A model generated the notes under the pieces. It searched no databases, was not told the DNA's origin, and saw only the letters and a program-made list of their open reading frames with translations. Shown piece after piece: positions 8,486-23,134 of a stretch of DNA of 64,000 nucleotides; position 1 is the first letter of the stretch, and the number at the start of each line of letters is the position of its first letter. Position numbers and translations under genes: made by a program. The stretch comes from a phage: the sequence record PZ445526.1; one strand, 5' to 3'.

Positions 8486-8697
8486 ACATTCATCAACTTA
8501 GCCGCTCCAAGAGCTGTATCTAGTGAATCAAATTGATCAACATATTCAATCAATTCGCCGTAATTGGCATATAACCACCATTGGCTAAATTCATACTCAA
8601 GGATGAATCCATTTCCTTCAATTTGAGTTAAACCATTGCCGTTTGTATTTACTTCATATCCGGCAAGACGCAAATCGTTAATAAGAGTTTCGTTCAT
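8482..8697 (-). CDS. hypothetical protein
   Basis: 71 aa ORF, ATG start, overlaps neighbour by 4 nt. Confidence 0.4.
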   Translation of the reverse strand: MNETLINDLRLAGYEVNTNGNGLTQIEGNGFILEYEFSQWWLYANYGELIEYVDQFDSLDTALGAAKLMNV

Positions 8698-8699
8698 AA

Positions 8700-9026
8700 T
8701 TATACCTTAGTAATTTTCAGGTCTGCAAATTTTTTCTTGCGTTGATTTTTCATGCGACGAATAGTTTTATCGGAAATTTCATGCTTTTGATAAGCTTTAG
8801 ATTCTACACCAAAAGCTTTAACATCAAATTCTGACAAGATATATTGAACCATCAATTCGCGGACAGTGTTGCGTCCAATTTTCTGATCATTCTGTTTCAT
8901 CGTCTGATGAAGCTCTTTTTCCCATTTATCCAAAATTTGAGGAGTTACAATATCGCCTTTTTCTAGCAAAGAAACTACTTTATCATATGCGTAAGAATTG
9001 ATGGCGTTTTTAATTTGAATAGTCAT
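8700..9026 (-). CDS. hypothetical protein
   Basis: 108 aa ORF, basic C-terminus. Confidence 0.45.
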   Translation of the reverse strand: MTIQIKNAINSYAYDKVVSLLEKGDIVTPQILDKWEKELHQTMKQNDQKIGRNTVRELMVQYILSEFDVKAFGVESKAYQKHEISDKTIRRMKNQRKKKFADLKITKV

Positions 9027-9063
9027 ACATTATCCCCAATTACGTTAAAATTTTATTATCCAA

Positions 9064-9080
9064 AAAGGGCCGAAGCCCTT
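9064..9080 (-). terminator. rho-independent terminator (GGGC-UUCG-GCCC hairpin plus U-run)
   Basis: gggccgaagccc followed on the minus strand by TTTTTG. Confidence 0.5.
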
Positions 9081-9279
9081 AGCTAAACTTTTTTGCACCC
9101 TTCCAGCCTTCGTACATCATTGCGACTGACAATGACAAAGCTCCTTCACATGCTGCATACTTATTATTCCAGAACCAATTTAGAAAAACTTCATCCTCAA
9201 TACCATTGTGTTTCATGTTCTGGAAAAATTTGGCGCGTTCTTCAGCAATTCGCTGCGATAATTTAGATTCAGGATTCAT
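9079..9279 (-). CDS. hypothetical protein
   Basis: 66 aa ORF. Confidence 0.4.
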   Translation of the reverse strand: MNPESKLSQRIAEERAKFFQNMKHNGIEDEVFLNWFWNNKYAACEGALSLSVAMMYEGWKGAKKFS

Positions 9280-9418
9280 TTAAATTTCCCAATTGCCATT
9301 TTCATCAATAAATTTAATCCAGTCATTTACTGACCACTTAGTTGTATCGCCTTTTGGAGTAACATTTAAAGTATATAGCCCTTGCTTAAAAAGCATTCGT
9401 TTGATATTCATATTTTCC

Positions 9419-9712
9419 TCAGCTGTAACGATAACACTCGTTTGATTTACGTTTAGCAACTCGTTGAGAAGTATTATAATCAAAATCATCATCAATGTAA
9501 ACTGATTTTTTCAACTTTCTTACTTCACCGCGTAATTGACGATTTAACTCATCTTTAACTTCTGAATCAATACCTTTCATTCTACGCCATTTATCTGAGC
9601 GAAAAATGTTTTCAACCATATCTTTATGACTTACACCATCAGGAGCTTTACGCTTTCCGAAATAGTCATAATCACGCACTTTTAAGTCTTTACGACGATA
9701 CGTTTTACCCAT
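9419..9712 (-). CDS. hypothetical basic protein (start set to internal ATG)
   Basis: Track ORF starts at a GTG; first ATG gives MGKTYRRKDLKVRDYDYFGKRK..., 97 aa. Confidence 0.4.
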   Translation of the reverse strand: MGKTYRRKDLKVRDYDYFGKRKAPDGVSHKDMVENIFRSDKWRRMKGIDSEVKDELNRQLRGEVRKLKKSVYIDDDFDYNTSQRVAKRKSNECYRYS

Positions 9713-15317: not shown

Positions 15318-15618
15318 TTTCTTCTCGGTCAAATCGGTGTTTACAATGGCGACATTTATAACGAAGATTATTAGTCTGCCAATGGACCAATTGCACCTGT
15401 TCAGTTCCACATTCAGGGCAATTAGGAACGTTTTTAGAAGCCCTTTCGCGACGTTCAACCATGACCATTACAGAATCCCAATTAATAGGGCTGCTATAAT
15501 CATCACAACCGTGAATCTTTCCACGCATTTCCAGATCGTCTTCTTCACCAGCCATAATAATTTTAATTAGACTAGAATTACTTGAAGCTGCAATGTCTTC
15601 TAATAGACGCTTTTTCAT
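15304..15618 (-). CDS. small zinc-ribbon protein
   Basis: 104 aa; CPECG...CRHCKH four-cysteine motif. Confidence 0.45.
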
Positions 15619-16541
15619 TTCAATACCTCAATAGCATTACGTAAACCATTTGCTTTTGCATTAAGAGCTTTTAACAATTTGGTGTGTTCTGCAATTTGGG
15701 CTTCAACTTCAATCAAACGAGCATTGAGATATTCGCGTTCTTCTTTCATAGTATCATTCCCATGATTGGATTTTGGTGTAGGTTTAAATTCACTAGGGTC
15801 CTTTAATTTAATAACAAATTTAGTTTCAAACAGTGAAAGACCATAATTCGTATTATCATCAAAGGATTTGACTACATCCATATCAGATAATAACACGCGT
15901 AAATTATAAGCCAAAGAACTAATAGTTTCATTGTGTTTATTAGCTTCGCGTGGTTTCATATACGGAAGATTTTTATATATCTCGTGCGGAGCACAAATGA
16001 TAATTGACAATTCAAATTGCCCATTCTGGGACGATGGAGTGAATTTAGCCGTAACCCAGTCTTTTACATTCACATTAATAGTACGGTTATCACCATGACA
16101 AAACAGTCTACGAGAATGCTTAAAAAGCATATTCACGTTATTATTGAATTCGTGTGAAAATTCACTAGCAAATTTTTCTTTACTATCTTTAGAAAACCAT
16201 TCTTCTAAATAAGTTCTTTTCACGTCGTTAATAATATTAAATGTAACAACACTAGCATTTGATACATTAGTCTCAATGTAGCTTGGATACATAAATTTTT
16301 TAACATTATTAACAGCTATCACAGAAGATAGTAATCGGGAACGTTTGAACCACTCGAGCAAAGAACCAAGAGAATGTGAATACGCATTTTGTGTATCTTT
16401 ACAAATATGGTTTTCCCATCCAATATAGTCTAAAAAATCACGAAGAATATTATTGATTACTGCTCTGTGTCCTATCTGATAATTACGATGTTTAGTAATA
16501 AGACTGTCAAAATAATCAATATAATGTTTACGAGTTTTCAT
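15615..16541 (-). CDS. hypothetical protein, coiled-coil family member A
   Basis: 308 aa; C-terminal heptad region [33 protein letters not shown]; shares SRLLS motif with member B. Confidence 0.5.
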   Translation of the reverse strand: MKTRKHYIDYFDSLITKHRNYQIGHRAVINNILRDFLDYIGWENHICKDTQNAYSHSLGSLLEWFKRSRLLSSVIAVNNVKKFMYPSYIETNVSNASVVTFNIINDVKRTYLEEWFSKDSKEKFASEFSHEFNNNVNMLFKHSRRLFCHGDNRTINVNVKDWVTAKFTPSSQNGQFELSIIICAPHEIYKNLPYMKPREANKHNETISSLAYNLRVLLSDMDVVKSFDDNTNYGLSLFETKFVIKLKDPSEFKPTPKSNHGNDTMKEEREYLNARLIEVEAQIAEHTKLLKALNAKANGLRNAIEVLK

Positions 16542-16595
16542 GTTCTTCTCACTTGGTTAATGATTTATACTCCGAGCCATCCTTGGCTTTAAATT

Positions 16596-17597
16596 TTACT
16601 TAATTAACTGTAAAGCTTGTTCCAGACGATCAAGACGATTAACAGATTCTTCCCAAATCCTTTTAGCCTGCTCATATTCTTTCTGCGCTTTATTAGAAAT
16701 TTCTAGAACTTCTTTATAAGCTTTTTCTAATGCAATAACTTCTGGACGAATTTCTATCGGTTCAGGTGAATCATCAAGACATTCCATTAGTTCCTCAAGG
16801 GTAGTTTCTTCTTTAGGAGTATTCACAATTTCATCACATTTTTGTTGGTAAATTTCTTTATCAGTAGGTGAGTACGCGCACTTTACTTCACGAAGACTAA
16901 TTACAATTTTATATCCTTCCCAACCGCATATATTCTTAAAAGGATAAGTATGAATATTTTCTACTGTTTCCATACAAAGTAATGCGGTCTCTAATTGACG
17001 AGTTATAGTGCTAGCAATTGAGAAAAATTTATTAATATTCTTTTGGTTAGTTTCTGGTGTAAAAAATCCATAATTCACAAAAATAGATACTTTATTTTTA
17101 TCAAGTTCATATTCTTTTATGATAATCATATCAGAAGCCAAAGGATGAATTTGACGATAATCGCCATAACATAATTTAGAAGCTGATTTTAGAATCTGTC
17201 CTTTGAAAAGTCTGAAATTACTAATCCAACGACGAGTAAAAATATTCTCAGGGTCTTCTTTATTATTAAGATGATAAGAATTAACATCACCGAACCAATT
17301 ATATCCTACTACATCTTTGGTTCGTTTAATTTCTTTCCCAAAATTACCAAGAATATCCCGATTAACCAAATATGAAAGAAGACGAGACTCTTTAAAGGTT
17401 TTCTTGATAACATCTTTATCTACACGGCTAGAAATTTTACGAATTTCATGAATAAATTTAGTAGAAGAAACAATACTTGCATCAACACTATTGAGCCATT
17501 GATTGATAATAGAAAGAACGCTATTTTGGCCAAACATCGGTATAGCTTTATCATCAATAACGCTATTGAATGATTTGATATATTCGTTACGAGTCAT
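16596..17597 (-). CDS. hypothetical protein, coiled-coil family member B
   Basis: 333 aa from ATG (MTRNEYIKSF...) behind RBS GAGGAG; C-terminal coiled coil; motif FRLFKGQILKSASKL. Confidence 0.5.
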   Translation of the reverse strand: MTRNEYIKSFNSVIDDKAIPMFGQNSVLSIINQWLNSVDASIVSSTKFIHEIRKISSRVDKDVIKKTFKESRLLSYLVNRDILGNFGKEIKRTKDVVGYNWFGDVNSYHLNNKEDPENIFTRRWISNFRLFKGQILKSASKLCYGDYRQIHPLASDMIIIKEYELDKNKVSIFVNYGFFTPETNQKNINKFFSIASTITRQLETALLCMETVENIHTYPFKNICGWEGYKIVISLREVKCAYSPTDKEIYQQKCDEIVNTPKEETTLEELMECLDDSPEPIEIRPEVIALEKAYKEVLEISNKAQKEYEQAKRIWEESVNRLDRLEQALQLIK

Positions 17598-17654
17598 ATT
17601 AATCTCCTCAGTAGAAAGTAAGAACATTATACCACATCCTTGTGGCAAAGTAAA

Positions 17655-18683
17655 CTAGTTCAGTGCATTTAGTGCATTGTTCAGTTTAGAACGTTGCTTT
17701 GTCAGATTTTGAACCCTTGACTGAGCTTGTTTTAACACCTTTTCAGCTTCTAACACTTCATTAGTTGCTTTAACGAGTTCAGCATCTACTGCTTTAAGAG
17801 ACTTCTCAATCGCATCTGCATGCCATTTTTCAACAGGTTTAAGACTCGGATTTTCAATAGGAAGAAAATTCACTTTATTGAATTTCCATGCATCCTTATT
17901 ACCTGAACTATACATCCAAAATTTAGGATCGTTTGATAAGTAATTGGATAAATTTAAATTTAAGTTATCTTGTACTTCTTGCTTTTTCTCTTGTGTAACT
18001 TCGTCCTTTCTCAAAAAATCATATTTAAATGAAACAATCATATCAAGTTCATATGATGTTGTATCTAACTTAAATCGTTCAAAACGAGGTAAAATCTTAG
18101 ATTGAACAGCAGCAACAACATCCATATACTTAAATGCTTCTGTCAACTGTGATTTAAGGCATTCACAAATTGAAAGAGAATTTTTTGTATTAGGTTTAAA
18201 GCTAATTCGTGCAGTTCTATTATTTTCTTTTAACGGTCTTACTTCCATCTGAAGAGTATAACCATCAAATTTCAGGTTCTTTAAGTTAATATCAGAACCT
18301 TTTAATCGACTTGCTGTGGACAAAATTTGCTTTAATTGTTTACGGAATAGAGCAATAAATCTCCATTCAAGACGATAATGATTTGGATTAAAAAATCCTG
18401 TTGATAAATCGACCTTACTTTGACCAACGCCTTGAACAAATAGAGGATTTTTATAATCAATAGTTTTACAGAAATCGGTGAGCTGTTCACGAGCAGTCAT
18501 TTGCGTAATATACCCTGCTTTACTAAAATTACGCACCCATTCACTGCTATTCGTATACTTAAAGTGATGAATAACACGATTAACTTTATCAGGGTCTAAA
18601 TTATTTTCACACAAAAATGTCATAACATCACGAGTATAGCTGGCATTACGAACCATATCTTCAATTTGAGAACGAGTTTTCAT
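17655..18683 (-). CDS. hypothetical protein, coiled-coil family member C
   Basis: 342 aa; motif FRKQLKQILSTASRL paralogous to member B; C-terminal coiled coil. Confidence 0.5.
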   Translation of the reverse strand: MKTRSQIEDMVRNASYTRDVMTFLCENNLDPDKVNRVIHHFKYTNSSEWVRNFSKAGYITQMTAREQLTDFCKTIDYKNPLFVQGVGQSKVDLSTGFFNPNHYRLEWRFIALFRKQLKQILSTASRLKGSDINLKNLKFDGYTLQMEVRPLKENNRTARISFKPNTKNSLSICECLKSQLTEAFKYMDVVAAVQSKILPRFERFKLDTTSYELDMIVSFKYDFLRKDEVTQEKKQEVQDNLNLNLSNYLSNDPKFWMYSSGNKDAWKFNKVNFLPIENPSLKPVEKWHADAIEKSLKAVDAELVKATNEVLEAEKVLKQAQSRVQNLTKQRSKLNNALNALN

Positions 18684-18691
18684 GGTGTTCC

Positions 18692-19597
18692 TTAAGATTT
18701 AAGTAAATCAACAATTTTAATTAATTTTTCACGTTCAGATTTAGCTTTACTACTCAATCCGGATAGTCTAAAGATTTCATCGTCATATTGTTGAATAGAA
18801 ATATTCAGCTCTTCAATTTGCTTATTAAAATAATCAATTTGTTCAGAATGTTTTTCGTTACTACGAACTGGTACATGGTTTGTAGGCAATTTAGTTAAAC
18901 TGGATTCATCCGGGCGATAAATTAAAATACAACTTGAACCAATCGGACATTTAGCACCAGACACATATTCTAATGTTCCAGCTTCTTTTAAAATTTCAAA
19001 AGCTAAACAGAGATGATGACCCATATTGGCATAATCTGTAGAGTGAGCTCTGACGTAATAATCATCTCCACGAGTGCTAAATTTAAAGCATTTAAGGTCT
19101 TCTGTATTATTAGTTTTAAAAATCATTTGTTTATCTAGACCTTTAGCCAATCGAGCGCCTAATGCTAATAATCGTCGTTGATTTTCCCACAAATCCGCAA
19201 TCATTTGATCGAATGATAATTTCGGCATTAGTCGGCCATAAAGGTCATATCCTTTATTATAATTGCGAAGGATTTCACTCGCATTAATGCGAGACAACGC
19301 TCCAATTTTATTAAGGGCTTTCATGATGCGATTAGATAAACTCATTCCAGACCCGTTTGTTCGCTGTAAATGTTTTTCTAATCCAAATCCAATATCAACT
19401 TTAAATTTATCTAAAATTTTGGCATGAACGTCTCTGTCAATAACATTCAAATCCAAAGTTGGGTTAAATCTATGAAAAAATTTATCTGGCTCTCCACGAC
19501 GAAATACAGTCCATTCATTCATCATTTTTTTATTAACTAAAGATTTAATTACTGCATTGACATTATTAATTACTACTGACATATTTTCCTCACTCAA
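18692..19597 (-). CDS. hypothetical protein, coiled-coil family member D (weaker similarity)
   Basis: 301 aa; C-terminal coiled coil IEELNISIQQYDDEIFRL...EREKLIKIVDLLKS. Confidence 0.45.
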   Translation of the reverse strand: MSEENMSVVINNVNAVIKSLVNKKMMNEWTVFRRGEPDKFFHRFNPTLDLNVIDRDVHAKILDKFKVDIGFGLEKHLQRTNGSGMSLSNRIMKALNKIGALSRINASEILRNYNKGYDLYGRLMPKLSFDQMIADLWENQRRLLALGARLAKGLDKQMIFKTNNTEDLKCFKFSTRGDDYYVRAHSTDYANMGHHLCLAFEILKEAGTLEYVSGAKCPIGSSCILIYRPDESSLTKLPTNHVPVRSNEKHSEQIDYFNKQIEELNISIQQYDDEIFRLSGLSSKAKSEREKLIKIVDLLKS

Positions 19598-19991
19598 TTT
19601 TACTAATTACGCGGAATAAGATTGAACAGACTATATAAGTACCACATATAGATTGAACTAATGCCATTCCAAAGAACCAAACAATATTATCAAACCATGT
19701 CTGTTTTACGTCGAAAGGACGTAAACTTACAGTAATATTATCACCTTTTTCTATTGAAGAATACATCTCTGGTGAAATATATTCACTAAATCTATAACCG
19801 TCTTTGAGTTCATATACAGCAATAAACGATAAACTAGACCCCTTTCCTTGAGTTCCTGTAAGGGTATTAACTACAGTAACATCATAATCTTTATAATGCA
19901 TATAATCATTAATTGCGTAATAACCATATGCAATTACTATACATAAACAACATATCAATAAATTCAATCTTTTAATTATCAACTGTTTCAT
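19590..19991 (-). CDS. membrane protein
   Basis: 133 aa; N-terminal and C-terminal hydrophobic segments. Confidence 0.45.
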   Translation of the reverse strand: MKQLIIKRLNLLICCLCIVIAYGYYAINDYMHYKDYDVTVVNTLTGTQGKGSSLSFIAVYELKDGYRFSEYISPEMYSSIEKGDNITVSLRPFDVKQTWFDNIVWFFGMALVQSICGTYIVCSILFRVISKIE

Positions 19992-20046
19992 AATAATCTC
20001 AATTAAAAGGGCTTAGAACCATTATACCATCCTTGGTATAAAGCGG

Positions 20047-20574
20047 TTATGCGAGTACCGTCTTTAACCGTTCTTCAAACTTCCGAAGAGTATTTTGGCG
20101 TTCAGCTCTTTGCTTTTTGTAAGTTTCAATACGCTCTGAAATGAGAGTGTATCGTTCATTTACTGATTCTTTCATAAAATCAGGAATTTCACGAGAAGCT
20201 TTAATCTCGTCAAATTTATCAATAACAGCTTGCTCTTCAGCAATTAAGTTATCATACATCAAAATATCTTTCTTGATGAACTCAATATCTTCTTGAGTTA
20301 CGCGAGATAATTTAGATGCTTTATCCTTTTTGTACTGTTCGTTAGTATCACGAGACCAGTGTAATGTACGATTTTTATTCGTATTCTTGTAAATTTCTAC
20401 AATACCAATCTCATCAATAATAACGATCCAATTCCAACGGGATTTGTAAATTTGTCCTCCGTCAACCGTGATTTCACCTCCGATTGAGATGTCATTAAAG
20501 AACTTGCTTTGTGCTTCAGATTTAAATTTACCATCATTGTAGTTTACCAAGTTGAAAATATCTTTAGCATTCAT
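20047..20574 (-). CDS. hypothetical protein
   Basis: 175 aa from ATG (MNAKDIFNLVNYNDGKFK...); track extension is the translated promoter/5'UTR. Confidence 0.5.
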   Translation of the reverse strand: MNAKDIFNLVNYNDGKFKSEAQSKFFNDISIGGEITVDGGQIYKSRWNWIVIIDEIGIVEIYKNTNKNRTLHWSRDTNEQYKKDKASKLSRVTQEDIEFIKKDILMYDNLIAEEQAVIDKFDEIKASREIPDFMKESVNERYTLISERIETYKKQRAERQNTLRKFEERLKTVLA

Positions 20575-20602
20575 TTTCTGTTCCTCCGTAGTTGATAGTT
20601 GT

Positions 20603-20632
20603 ATAGTACCACAGAGGAACGGTCTTGTAAAC
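20603..20632 (-). promoter_or_regulatory. T4 early promoter cassette (-35 GTTTAC, TGGTACTAT -10)
   Basis: Minus strand GTTTACAAGACCGTTCCTCTGTGGTACTATACAACTATCAAC then GGAGGAA RBS. Confidence 0.55.
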
Positions 20633-20634
20633 AA

Positions 20635-20949
20635 CTAAAAGAAACTTCTTTCACAATTTTTTCCACTAAACCATGCGCTAACCGCTTTCTTAGTCTCAGG
20701 AGCAGTGTTATCCATAAACCATTCAAAAGCAGCCTTTTTATGATTCTGGAGGGCTTCTCGGGCTTTAATCTGCTCACGGTCTATTAACACTAACATATGA
20801 GCCTTTCTTGTCACCAGGGGCTTCTTATGATTTTTTGAATATTCCCAATCATTTGTCCATCGCATCGTTGTTGCGAATTGAAGTACAGCTTCTTTAATCT
20901 TAGTTTCGTAAATTTCACGAGCCTTTGAGTATAACATCATTACCTCCAT
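20635..20949 (-). CDS. hypothetical protein
   Basis: 104 aa ORF. Confidence 0.45.
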   Translation of the reverse strand: MEVMMLYSKAREIYETKIKEAVLQFATTMRWTNDWEYSKNHKKPLVTRKAHMLVLIDREQIKAREALQNHKKAAFEWFMDNTAPETKKAVSAWFSGKNCERSFF

Positions 20950-21038
20950 TTACTAGTTTAATTCTAGTCATCTTTTTGATGGCAGTCCATATAATCTATT
21001 TCTGAACTGCCTTTTTGTCATAGAAGTCCTCTTATGAA

Positions 21039-22007
21039 TTATTTCAGAAGAGTAACCTCAGCGATTTCTTCCCAACCGTTTTTGTCGGTCATAATAAAGT
21101 CAGCAAGATAAAGAGCAGTACGCAGTGAAACATTGCGTAAACGATTAACATTGACTTTCATCCATGATAATGCTTTATAAGTTTCTTCATCAGAAAGACC
21201 GCGCTTTTGCATCATGTCGGTTGAAAGAATAACATCTTCAACCCTGACCATAATTTCTTCATTAGTGTGAACACCCAAATCCAAATAAACTGAGCGGGAC
21301 ACTAATGCTTGTAAATGTGGAGCAAGTTTAGTACCACGGTCTAATTCGCGGTCAATGTCAACGTTTGTGATAAAAACAATCGTTCCTTTAAATTCAAACT
21401 CACGCTCAATGCCTTTTTCTTCTAAGTAAGAAGATGCAGTGCTCCAGCAGACTTTACGGGTCTCTCCAGTGTCCAGAGCAGCTTTCAGAAGATTAAGAAT
21501 GTCCATATCAGAGAAAACATCCACATCATCAATCAAAAGGACAGAATTCTCTTCACGATTATTCCAAAGCTGTTCATAAAGACCAATACCAGAGATTTTA
21601 CCATTAATGCTTTTATATTCAATGTATCCAATATCATTTGCTTTATTTAAAGCTTTATCTAAAGAATACGTTTTACCAATACCCGCCGCACCAGAGATAA
21701 TTAATGAACGAATGTTTCCGTTAATAATACCATTCGTCATCATTCCCATAACATTAAATCTTTTATTAATGCGGGTTTTCATATCTTCATATGATTCTTT
21801 AACTTCTTCAACTTTTACACCATCATATGAAATGTCTGATTTGTAAACCCAAACACCGCGACGTTTACCGTCAATTTCAACAAAAACTTTACCATCTCCT
21901 TGTGCATCTACCGGAGCATTATCTGGGAACCATTCACCTAAGAGCTCAAAAGTTCCAGAGATTTCTTTACCGAAGTAGATACCCTTATTGATAGTTACAG
22001 TTTTCAT
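21039..22007 (-). CDS. P-loop AAA-type ATPase
   Basis: 322 aa from ATG (MKTVTINKGIYFGK...); Walker A SGAAGIGKT, Walker B VLLIDDVD. Confidence 0.6.
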   Translation of the reverse strand: MKTVTINKGIYFGKEISGTFELLGEWFPDNAPVDAQGDGKVFVEIDGKRRGVWVYKSDISYDGVKVEEVKESYEDMKTRINKRFNVMGMMTNGIINGNIRSLIISGAAGIGKTYSLDKALNKANDIGYIEYKSINGKISGIGLYEQLWNNREENSVLLIDDVDVFSDMDILNLLKAALDTGETRKVCWSTASSYLEEKGIEREFEFKGTIVFITNVDIDRELDRGTKLAPHLQALVSRSVYLDLGVHTNEEIMVRVEDVILSTDMMQKRGLSDEETYKALSWMKVNVNRLRNVSLRTALYLADFIMTDKNGWEEIAEVTLLK

Positions 22008-22041
22008 TTTATTCTCCAAATCCGTATCAGTTGATAGTTGT

Positions 22042-22071
22042 ATAGTACCATAAAGCTTTATGCTTGTAAAC
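22042..22071 (-). promoter_or_regulatory. T4 early promoter cassette
   Basis: Minus strand GTTTACAAGCATAAAGCTTTATGGTACTATACAACTATCAAC, A/T-rich upstream, GGAGAATAAAATG RBS. Confidence 0.55.
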
Positions 22072-22097
22072 CGTTTTGTGAAAAAATTTTGAAATAA

Positions 22098-22120
22098 AAA
22101 GGGAGCCCGAAGGCTCCCTA
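22098..22120 (-). terminator. rho-independent terminator
   Basis: GGGAGCC-UUCG-GGCUCCC hairpin followed by UUUUUAUUUC, immediately after the 22121 stop. Confidence 0.65.
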
Positions 22121-23134
22121 TCATTTATAATAACTTCGGTGGTTTTCAAGATAGACCTTCTCAAGGAAGTCATCCCAGAAACCCATGTCTACTTTTTGCT
22201 GCATACCGTTCTTAGAAGCTTCAGTAGATGCTGCTTCTACTTGATCGACCACATCTTCCAAAAACTCTTGAACTGTTTTAAATGGATGTTTACCCAACTT
22301 CACGTCGAGAATAAATGGAGCATCTTGGAGTGGATAAACCAAGTCACCAGTTTTGTAAATTTCCAATAGTTGAAGTCCACCACGACAAGCATGGCTCAGA
22401 GCTTTCCAGTCAATACCTTCATTGGCTTCGGCCTTACGAGCACGTTCACCGTATTCAGCATCTAATTTGTTCAGTGACTGCTTAAGCTCAATAAGAGAAA
22501 GCGTTGTCTGATATTTACGACCCAACACAGTGTAGAACGTTTGTGGGCCTGTTTTCTCATGATTATGGAACACCCATTCACAGAATTCGTTTTCTGGAAG
22601 ACGATGCTTAATATCTTCAACTTTAGTACGACGCTGCTTAATGGAACCGTCTTCTTGGTAATCAACCCATTGCTCAGGGATTTGATTAACTACTTTCAAT
22701 ACATCGCGTAATGCAGCCAAACGAGAACCCTTGACACCGTATTTAGAAGCTTGCTTGCGAACATATCCTAAATAGGATTTCATGTTAGTCGTATAAAAAC
22801 GAGAACGGTTGTCTTGAATAAACTTCCACACATCAGGCAAATCAGATTTAACCACTAGTTCAGGTGGAGTGTGAAGCATATCCAATGCTACAGTTTCACC
22901 ATCTGCTGCTAATTTAAAGAAATATTTAAGACTGTATAGTTCATGGTCAATATCATCTTTAGTGTTTTTAGATGATGTGTTGTTAGTGTTTTTACTCATG
23001 TGCTCTTTAACATTTCCAATAAGAATATCACGAGCAGGAGGAACAAAGATTTCTTTAAAATCTACATCAGATTCTAGAGTAGAAGTTCCATAAAGATGAC
23101 TACCAAAATAGCTTTTCATTACTGTTTTCATCAT
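22121..23134 (-). CDS. predicted Pol-beta-superfamily nucleotidyltransferase
   Basis: 337 aa; N-terminal GSHLYGTSTLESDVDF fits the G[GS]x(9-13)DxD NTase signature. Confidence 0.5.
   Translation of the reverse strand: MMKTVMKSYFGSHLYGTSTLESDVDFKEIFVPPARDILIGNVKEHMSKNTNNTSSKNTKDDIDHELYSLKYFFKLAADGETVALDMLHTPPELVVKSDLPDVWKFIQDNRSRFYTTNMKSYLGYVRKQASKYGVKGSRLAALRDVLKVVNQIPEQWVDYQEDGSIKQRRTKVEDIKHRLPENEFCEWVFHNHEKTGPQTFYTVLGRKYQTTLSLIELKQSLNKLDAEYGERARKAEANEGIDWKALSHACRGGLQLLEIYKTGDLVYPLQDAPFILDVKLGKHPFKTVQEFLEDVVDQVEAASTEASKNGMQQKVDMGFWDDFLEKVYLENHRSYYK

Follow-up and report, generated by a model that had tools for sequence, protein, structure and literature searches.

The tandem genes nrdC.3 to nrdC.6 of a T4-like phage as diverged relatives and candidate counter-defence genes

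We examined a stretch of phage DNA of 64,000 nucleotides (nt; sequence record PZ445526.1), referred to below as the window, and within it a block of four genes bounded by nrdC.2 and the small membrane protein gene nrdC.7. The window belongs to a Tequatrovirus, and the 5.7 kilobases (kb) around the block are 96-97% identical to T4, T2, the RB-series and related phages. Comparison with the annotated T4 genome identified the four genes, here called members A, B, C and D, as nrdC.3, nrdC.4, nrdC.5 and nrdC.6, respectively. A first-pass annotation made from the sequence alone had described them as consecutive minus-strand genes of similar size, and the open reading frames (ORFs), with their lengths in amino acids (aa), bear this out:

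15615..16541, minus strand: nrdC.3 homologue (member A), ORF of 308 aa, equated with T4 nrdC.3 by synteny
16596..17597, minus strand: nrdC.4 homologue (member B), ORF of 333 aa, with an ATG start and a GAGGAG ribosome-binding site
17655..18683, minus strand: nrdC.5 homologue (member C), ORF of 342 aa, ortholog of the T4 anti-Dsr1 protein
18692..19582, minus strand: nrdC.6 homologue (member D), ORF of 296 aa counted from the ATG

The genes are all adjacent, lie on the same strand and are separated by gaps of 8-57 nt. Their products share 91% (nrdC.3), 99% (nrdC.4), 97.4% (nrdC.5) and 95% (nrdC.6) aa identity with the T4 counterparts, and nrdC.5 of the window occupies the same slot as T4 nrdC.5, between nrdC.6 and nrdC.4. 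The block had originally been delimited as 15615-19597. These limits held except at the outer end, where the TTG at 19597 overlaps nrdC.7 and nrdC.6 instead begins with the ATG at 19582, downstream of a GAGGAA ribosome-binding site. Likewise, the start of nrdC.4 is the ATG at 17597, with GAGGAG ahead of it, rather than the TTG at 17648.

Pairwise BLAST detected little similarity among the four proteins, with an expectation value (E) of 0.017 for the best pair, A and B, and of 0.27 for B and C. In the databases they fall into separate families. NrdC.3 and NrdC.4 both belong to phrog_1435 over their full length (E 3.6e-101 and E 6.6e-169, respectively), and their database homologues all bear Pfam PF26897. 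A PHROG profile search revealed no match of NrdC.5 or NrdC.6 to phrog_1435; NrdC.5 corresponds to Pfam DUF7235 (PF23882) and phrog_2351, with 417.7 bits against a cut-off of 30 and coverage of residues 1-342, and NrdC.6 is a member of phrog_2257. In a local copy of Pfam, A, B and D matched neither DUF7235 nor any other entry.

For direct comparison, we built profiles from database homologues together with orthologs taken from Dhakavirus, Gaprivervirus and Mosigvirus genomes. Alignment with hhalign linked A to B with a probability of 98% (E 1e-14) and C to the combined A+B profile with a probability of 93% (E 4e-7), which became 87% (E 4.5e-6) when the tails were cut off. Reversed-sequence controls for these comparisons gave E values of 0.2-0.6. 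Direct comparisons of D with A, B and C were not significant (E 0.002-0.2).

We also constructed a bridge profile from eight single-copy syntenic homologues, none of which comes from the four families; an earlier version had five members. All four families matched the eight-singleton profile with probabilities of 95-98% (E 9.5e-6 for A, 7e-8 for B, 1.9e-10 for A+B, 1.5e-14 for C and 3.5e-8 for D), the match of D having a probability of 95% over 252 aligned columns. The outcome was stable under any choice of master singleton, and the neighbouring gene nrdC.8, used as a control, gave E 0.23. With the five-singleton profile, column shuffling yielded z-scores of 12-56 for the family matches, and reversed controls yielded E values of 0.02-0.6. 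The alignments of A, B and A+B to the singleton profile are confined to the globular part of the proteins, those of C and D to the eight-singleton profile extend into the C-terminal helix, and that of D to the five-singleton profile spans residues 46-230 alone. In addition, the singleton PM2_092 of Pectobacterium phage PM2 was matched by the hidden Markov models of both D (3.9e-7) and C (1.8e-5), and when 314 ORFs, drawn from every locus and from the full 64-kb window, were screened with hmmsearch, only the expected genes were returned.

Judged by these profile alignments, the homology of A, B and C is beyond reasonable doubt, and that of D to them is very probable. Paralogy with strong divergence, which the first-pass annotation had proposed from a few shared motifs, is thus borne out by the A-B, C to A+B and singleton-profile matches, profile similarity being significant although pairwise BLAST is weak. 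Our findings suggest that nrdC.3 to nrdC.6 form one superfamily, which bridges PF26897/phrog_1435, DUF7235/phrog_2351 and phrog_2257. Separately, we considered nrdC.8 (175 aa, with a charged-helix end) as a fifth, shorter member and rejected it, given hhalign E values of 0.1-0.2 against every profile; it also evolves slowly, with a ratio of non-synonymous to synonymous substitution rates (dN/dS) of 0.03.

Alignment to the singleton profile placed three motifs in A, B, C and D collinearly and in register, two of which lie at these positions:

Shared motif 1, minus strand: B 17340-17408 (IKKTFKESRLLSYLVNRDILGNF), A 16293-16361, C 18471-18539, D 19262-19327
Shared motif 2, minus strand: B 17145-17231 (RWISNFRLFKGQILKSASKLCYGDYRQIH), A 16077-16163, C 18282-18362, D 19121-19207

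The resemblances that had been noticed by eye prove to be parts of motif 1 (SRLLS) and motif 2 (FR...QIL..AS[KR]L). The SRLLS reported as common to A and B belongs to a motif found in all four proteins, and the internal motif reported for B and C is confirmed, as FRLFKGQILKSASKL of B and FRKQLKQILSTASRL of C align in register; so do NMLFKHSRRLF of A and QRRLLALGARLAKG of D. The build that the four proteins appear to share starts with an N-terminal helical region and the three motifs, and continues through an alpha/beta core and a linker to an amphipathic helix at the C-terminus. The core would be small, a long helix would carry the motif h-L-x-x-A-x-[RK]-L-x-x-G-D, and the variable linker is probably disordered.

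AlphaFold2 models of C and D reached predicted local distance difference test (pLDDT) scores of 57 and 70, too low for the fold to be assigned firmly; in both, helices and strands follow the same order. When searched against BFVD, both models retrieved A0A0A0PZG4 of PM2 and A0A023W506 of PS2, and that of C also retrieved a Merlin protein. A0A0A0PZG4 is PM2_092 by its 309-aa length and synteny, and the BFVD matches correspond to syntenic singletons. Pfam and structure searches found no known fold, domain or solved relative pointing to a specific activity. Many phage GenBank records label nrdC.3 to nrdC.11 (window 15615-23134) 'thioredoxin'. Pfam detected no thioredoxin domain in nrdC.3 to nrdC.8; for nrdC.3 to nrdC.6, there was no thioredoxin-family match at E <=1 and no CxxC in any of the four. 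The label appears to have been inherited from the name of the neighbouring nrdC gene.

The C-terminal helices lie at the following positions:

15618..15743, minus strand: C-terminal amphipathic helix of member A, residues 267-308, with a heptad score for segment 270-305 and the terminal motif
16599..16745, minus strand: C-terminal helix of member B, residues 285-333, with a marginal heptad score and the terminal motif RLEQALQLIK
17661..17837, minus strand: C-terminal helix of member C, residues 283-341, a single helix in the AlphaFold2 model (pLDDT 74-90), with a heptad score
18698..18859, minus strand: C-terminal helices of member D, residues 242-272 and 278-295, in the AlphaFold2 model (pLDDT 75-86)

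According to the AlphaFold2 models, the NrdC.5 tail is one helix of 59 residues, and that of NrdC.6 consists of two helices of 31 and 18 residues with a break at GLSS. The first-pass annotation had all four proteins end in coiled coils. Taking heptad a/d periodicity over at least 28 residues in a predicted long helix as the mark of a coiled coil, we scored the tails against the 95th percentile of shuffled sequences, and found clear signals in NrdC.3 (0.72 vs 0.60) and NrdC.5 (0.90 vs 0.60) and marginal ones in NrdC.4 (0.68 vs 0.60) and NrdC.6 (0.60 vs 0.57). A coiled coil is therefore well supported for the NrdC.3 and NrdC.5 tails and plausible for those of NrdC.4 and NrdC.6. The final 8-12 residues fit L-x-x-A-h-x-h-L-K in all four families and in every distant homologue collected, and the RLEQALQLIK of member B is kept in its Dhakavirus and Gaprivervirus orthologs. 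Among four Tequatroviruses, the tail segment of nrdC.6 shows zero non-synonymous changes despite a synonymous rate (dS) of 0.24.

Copy number differs between genera of T4-like phages, the locus holding one copy in six genera, three in Mosigvirus, Dhakavirus and Gaprivervirus, and four in Tequatrovirus. Genera with three copies hold D, C and one gene of the A/B type. Distant T4-like genera possess a single gene, directly upstream of nrdC.2/nrdC, whose product of 309-348 aa ends in the same tail; we found it in Moonvirus, Winklervirus, Kagamiyamavirus, Gelderlandvirus, Jiaodavirus, Mosugukvirus and Lazarusvirus of Acinetobacter. The family is genus-specific in sequence, its versions usually being <30% identical to those of the next genus. 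Searches of very large protein collections revealed no clear cellular homologues; a few matches bear bacterial names, and the long contigs among them are phage-sized. We conclude that the family is restricted to T4-like phages. A weak match (P0099) looks like an assembly chimera. Metagenome contigs of up to 167 kb (P0097) encode a natural chimera of 299 aa, in which NrdC.5 residues ~147-272 are joined to NrdC.3 from residue ~138 to its end; the junction is a short N-V-N microhomology, and the fusion removes nrdC.4 and parts of both neighbours.

Beside the singletons of LC53, CGG4-1 and FRZ284 lie ORFs of 257-262 aa that we considered as family members and found to be unrelated. Such an ORF, well conserved, is located directly upstream of the singleton in Winklervirus, Gelderlandvirus and Jiaodavirus (loci L007 14925-15698, L008 14418-15200 and L010 15144-15932) and is missing from the Tequatrovirus block.

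Dsr1 is a SIR2-domain (sirtuin) protein thought to deplete nicotinamide adenine dinucleotide (NAD). T4 nrdC.5 neutralises the defence that it provides (Srikant, Guegler and Laub, eLife 2022; PMC9391042). In that study, deletions that removed genes from a T4 clone left it unable to plate on ECOR17, deletion of dsr1 from ECOR17 restored plating, and cloned dsr1 shielded MG1655 from the T4 deletion clone (PMC9391042). On Dsr1 cells, supplying nrdC.5 by itself from a plasmid was enough to rescue the deletion clone (PMC9391042). The same authors described nrdC.5 as a non-essential early gene, and T4 without it still plated on MG1655 (PMC9391042); the placement of the block in a non-essential early region by the first-pass annotation agrees with this description for nrdC.5. 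A 2026 study reported that the sensor domain of Dsr1 is common to Avs7 and recognises phage major capsid proteins (PMC13581612). Our search of the literature on nrdC.3, nrdC.4, nrdC.6, DUF7235, PF26897 and later nrdC.5/Dsr1 work found nothing beyond the eLife 2022 paper.

A consensus scan also detected a candidate for an early promoter inside the block, in the 57-nt gap between the stop of nrdC.5 and the start of nrdC.4:

17626..17654, minus strand: T4-early-type promoter-like site (GTTTACT, 17 nt, TGGTATAAT), scoring 10/12, with an extended -10 element, as read from the sequence

A pattern scan of the coding strand within the block found no MotA-box middle promoters. Short GC-containing hairpins occur at 16572-16589, in the nrdC.4-nrdC.3 gap, and at 17630-17647, in the nrdC.5-nrdC.4 gap, where the hairpin overlaps the early-promoter-like site.

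The four genes evolve faster than their surroundings. Pooled Nei-Gojobori estimates from 4-6 genomes gave dN/dS values of 0.35 for nrdC.3, 0.24 for nrdC.4, 0.19 for nrdC.5 and 0.09 for nrdC.6, the last computed without the T2 record, with which it becomes 0.54 through an in-frame stop that shifts the codon alignment. Most of the flanking genes tested (49, nrdC and nrdC.8-11) gave 0.02-0.05, and the family values are 2-15x those of the flanking genes. Across six Tequatrovirus genomes, aa identity is 62-99% for nrdC.3 to nrdC.6 and 98-100% for genes 49, nrdC, nrdC.1 and nrdC.8-11. As dN/dS is raised yet stays below 1, the genes are functional and either less constrained or locally diversifying.

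For nrdC.3, we found two allele classes within Tequatrovirus, one of 140 records with 90-99% and one of 357 records with ~62% aa identity to the window copy. In RB5 and phiD1 (loci L011 and L013, both 8501-9430), the conserved flanking genes are 98-100% identical, and such conservation around a divergent nrdC.3 suggests that the allele was replaced by recombination.

Disrupted copies were also observed. In T2 record PV648364, nrdC.3 and nrdC.5 are intact, nrdC.6 (locus L012 5469-6359) has an in-frame stop (EAGTLEY to EA*TLEY) and nrdC.4 (L012 7507-8446) is split by a frameshift. Since nrdC.2, nrdC.7 and 49.2 look split in the same record, some of these disruptions may be sequencing errors. The broken T2 copies of nrdC.4 and nrdC.6 and the loss of nrdC.4 in P0097 are consistent with dispensability. 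In the T4 reference NC_000866, nrdC.6 (locus L001 6749-7576) shows a 1-nt deletion relative to the window at ~18805 (GCTGAAT to GCTG-AT); the frameshift costs the last 37 residues, those that make up the terminal helix, and the annotated product has 275 aa. Other Tequatroviruses, including resequenced T4 (KJ477685), retain an intact nrdC.6 ORF of 295-296 aa, and the lesion is probably a sequencing error or specific to a laboratory strain.

Taking these observations together, we think it reasonably likely that a single fast-evolving accessory gene expanded in tandem within certain lineages to give the block, and that the function of the block is counter-defence. The ancestor would have been a single gene of ~310-350 aa just upstream of nrdC.2/nrdC, duplicated to three copies in coliphage genera and to four in Tequatrovirus (nrdC.6, nrdC.5, nrdC.4 and nrdC.3). 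The proteins would be made early in infection, a timing suggested by the promoter-like site and by the description of nrdC.5 as early (PMC9391042), and each would neutralise a host immune protein, with the divergent globular part as target-binding surface and the conserved tail as the oligomerising element. The window nrdC.5 would cancel Dsr1 as T4 nrdC.5 does. Since the trigger of Dsr1, the major capsid protein, is made late, a binder produced early would act before the trigger appears, and NrdC.5 may disarm Dsr1 ahead of capsid protein synthesis in this way. NrdC.3, NrdC.4 and NrdC.6 would be directed at other defence proteins or at other variants of Dsr1/Avs7-type sensors. The suggestion in the first-pass annotation that these are genes in an arms race with the host thus stands for nrdC.5, by the anti-Dsr1 activity in T4 (PMC9391042), and is indirect for nrdC.3, nrdC.4 and nrdC.6, for which it draws on dN/dS, alleles, copy number and the disrupted T2 copies.

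Several points weigh against this interpretation. Experimental function has been established for one of the four genes, nrdC.5, and with the T4 allele rather than that of the window, and nrdC.5 may block Dsr1 by binding it directly, by acting as a decoy or indirectly, through NAD or capsid protein. Gene-wide dN/dS is <1 in all four genes and only 0.09 in nrdC.6, by estimates from 4-6 genomes; positive selection is therefore not demonstrated, and relaxed constraint could explain much of the elevation. Oligomerisation through the conserved tail is an assumption. Finally, D joins the others only through an intermediate profile, as none of its direct comparisons is significant, and removal of one member from the five-member profile reduced its link to E 0.056.

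An alternative that we regard as unlikely is that the four proteins serve host takeover or regulation, in nucleotide metabolism, transcription or the envelope, with fast evolution reflecting weak constraint and the effect on Dsr1 being indirect. Their position in the nrdC-mobD region among nucleotide-metabolism genes would suit such a role, as would dN/dS values below 1 throughout and the lack of a domain or fold indicating a specific activity. However, nrdC.5 has a documented specific genetic interaction with a defence gene (PMC9391042), absence from cellular genomes combined with genus-specific sequence is the usual pattern of host-range determinants, and, contrary to what the GenBank labels imply, neither a thioredoxin signature nor that of another enzyme is present.

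We consider it very unlikely that the four proteins come together through their C-terminal helices as a single hetero-oligomeric machine with one function. With a single copy in six genera, the protein must be able to work as a monomer or homomer, and copy number and allele type vary independently, nrdC.3 swapping alleles while its neighbours do not. The T2 record combines broken nrdC.4 and nrdC.6 with intact nrdC.3 and nrdC.5, although this is one record with possible sequencing errors, and nrdC.5 alone on a plasmid rescued the T4 deletion clone (PMC9391042), a deletion whose extent was not established here. These observations outweigh the features that a hetero-oligomer would account for, namely the close spacing of adjacent genes on one strand with gaps of 8-57 nt, the similar L-x-x-A-h-x-h-L-K ends of all tails and the invariance of the nrdC.6 tail among Tequatroviruses. 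Chance resemblance, with four orphan genes of separate origin all happening to finish in a charged helix of low complexity, could appeal to the poor pairwise BLAST values (best 0.017) and to the capacity of coiled-coil composition to inflate profile scores, but it is hardly credible against matches that survive tail removal, lie collinearly in the globular part of all four proteins, far exceed reversed and column-shuffled controls and do not reach nrdC.8, which also ends in a charged helix, and we rejected it on these grounds.

Within the counter-defence interpretation, a bolder extension, which we hold to be quite unlikely, would make the entire gene family, single-copy Straboviridae versions and coliphage paralogs alike, a dedicated set of early blockers of capsid-sensing receptors. 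Each globular domain would fill the capsid-binding cleft of a different Avs7/Dsr1-type clade ahead of major capsid protein synthesis, and the tail would provide oligomerisation and avidity. If this were true, duplication at the locus would track the diversification of one class of host pattern-recognition receptors.

Compared with known systems, member C is the ortholog of T4 NrdC.5 (DUF7235, PF23882), in the same position and with a full-length match, whereas A, B and D are distant paralogs that lack a DUF7235 match; the anti-Dsr1 activity is known for the T4 allele. A and B are full-length members of the NrdC.3-NrdC.4 family, PF26897/phrog_1435, which the databases keep separate from DUF7235 (phrog_2351) and phrog_2257 and which is joined to them here by profile bridges. 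DSAD1 of Bacillus phages, the anti-DSR2 protein, is a functional analogue, since this phage product, too, disarms a defence of the SIR2 type that depletes NAD and senses a late structural protein. It differs in that its target DSR2 senses the tail tube and that it comes from another phage group, and the comparison drawn here is one of function; direct binding to the target has been shown for DSAD1, whereas for NrdC.5 we infer it. The T4 dmd-tifA-adfA 'anti-TA island' and the internal proteins IPI-IPIII are likewise non-essential, variable and grouped accessory genes, each of which counters a specific host system and is lost or gained with host range. As far as reported, those genes are not paralogs of one another, whereas nrdC.3 to nrdC.6 would derive from one duplicated gene.

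Thus, the anti-Dsr1 activity of nrdC.5 and phage counter-defence clusters as a kind were already known, and what is new is the unification of a superfamily with a single-copy ancestor, which does not appear in the literature searched, together with three candidates. NrdC.3, nrdC.4 and nrdC.6, previously placed in separate 'unknown' families, are three good counter-defence candidates in T4, the reference phage. The two nrdC.3 classes, the single-copy versions and the natural chimera provide a natural allele series for mapping target specificity. The analysis also corrects the 'thioredoxin' label that many records carry in error, and what is probably a frameshift in nrdC.6 of the T4 reference.

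Beyond the block, the neighbouring genes nrdC.10 (P-loop/clamp-loader-like) and nrdC.11 (nucleotidyltransferase), at 21039-23134 of the window, are far more widespread than the four-gene family, with nrdC.11 present in 1,505 phage records, some of them from Vibrio and Aeromonas phages. Conservation of the two genes is strong (dN/dS ~0.04), and a GC-rich terminator-like hairpin lies at 22100-22119, at the nrdC.10/nrdC.11 junction just inside the nrdC.10 start. The locus is plastic, as seen from insertions that are absent from the window: RB5 carries a homing-endonuclease-like ORF between nrdC.10 and nrdC.9 (locus L011 3308-4027), and T2 (locus L012 2438-2923) and Moon (locus L006 11574-12059) carry an 'RNA polymerase ADP-ribosylase' ORF between nrdC.11 and nrdC.10.

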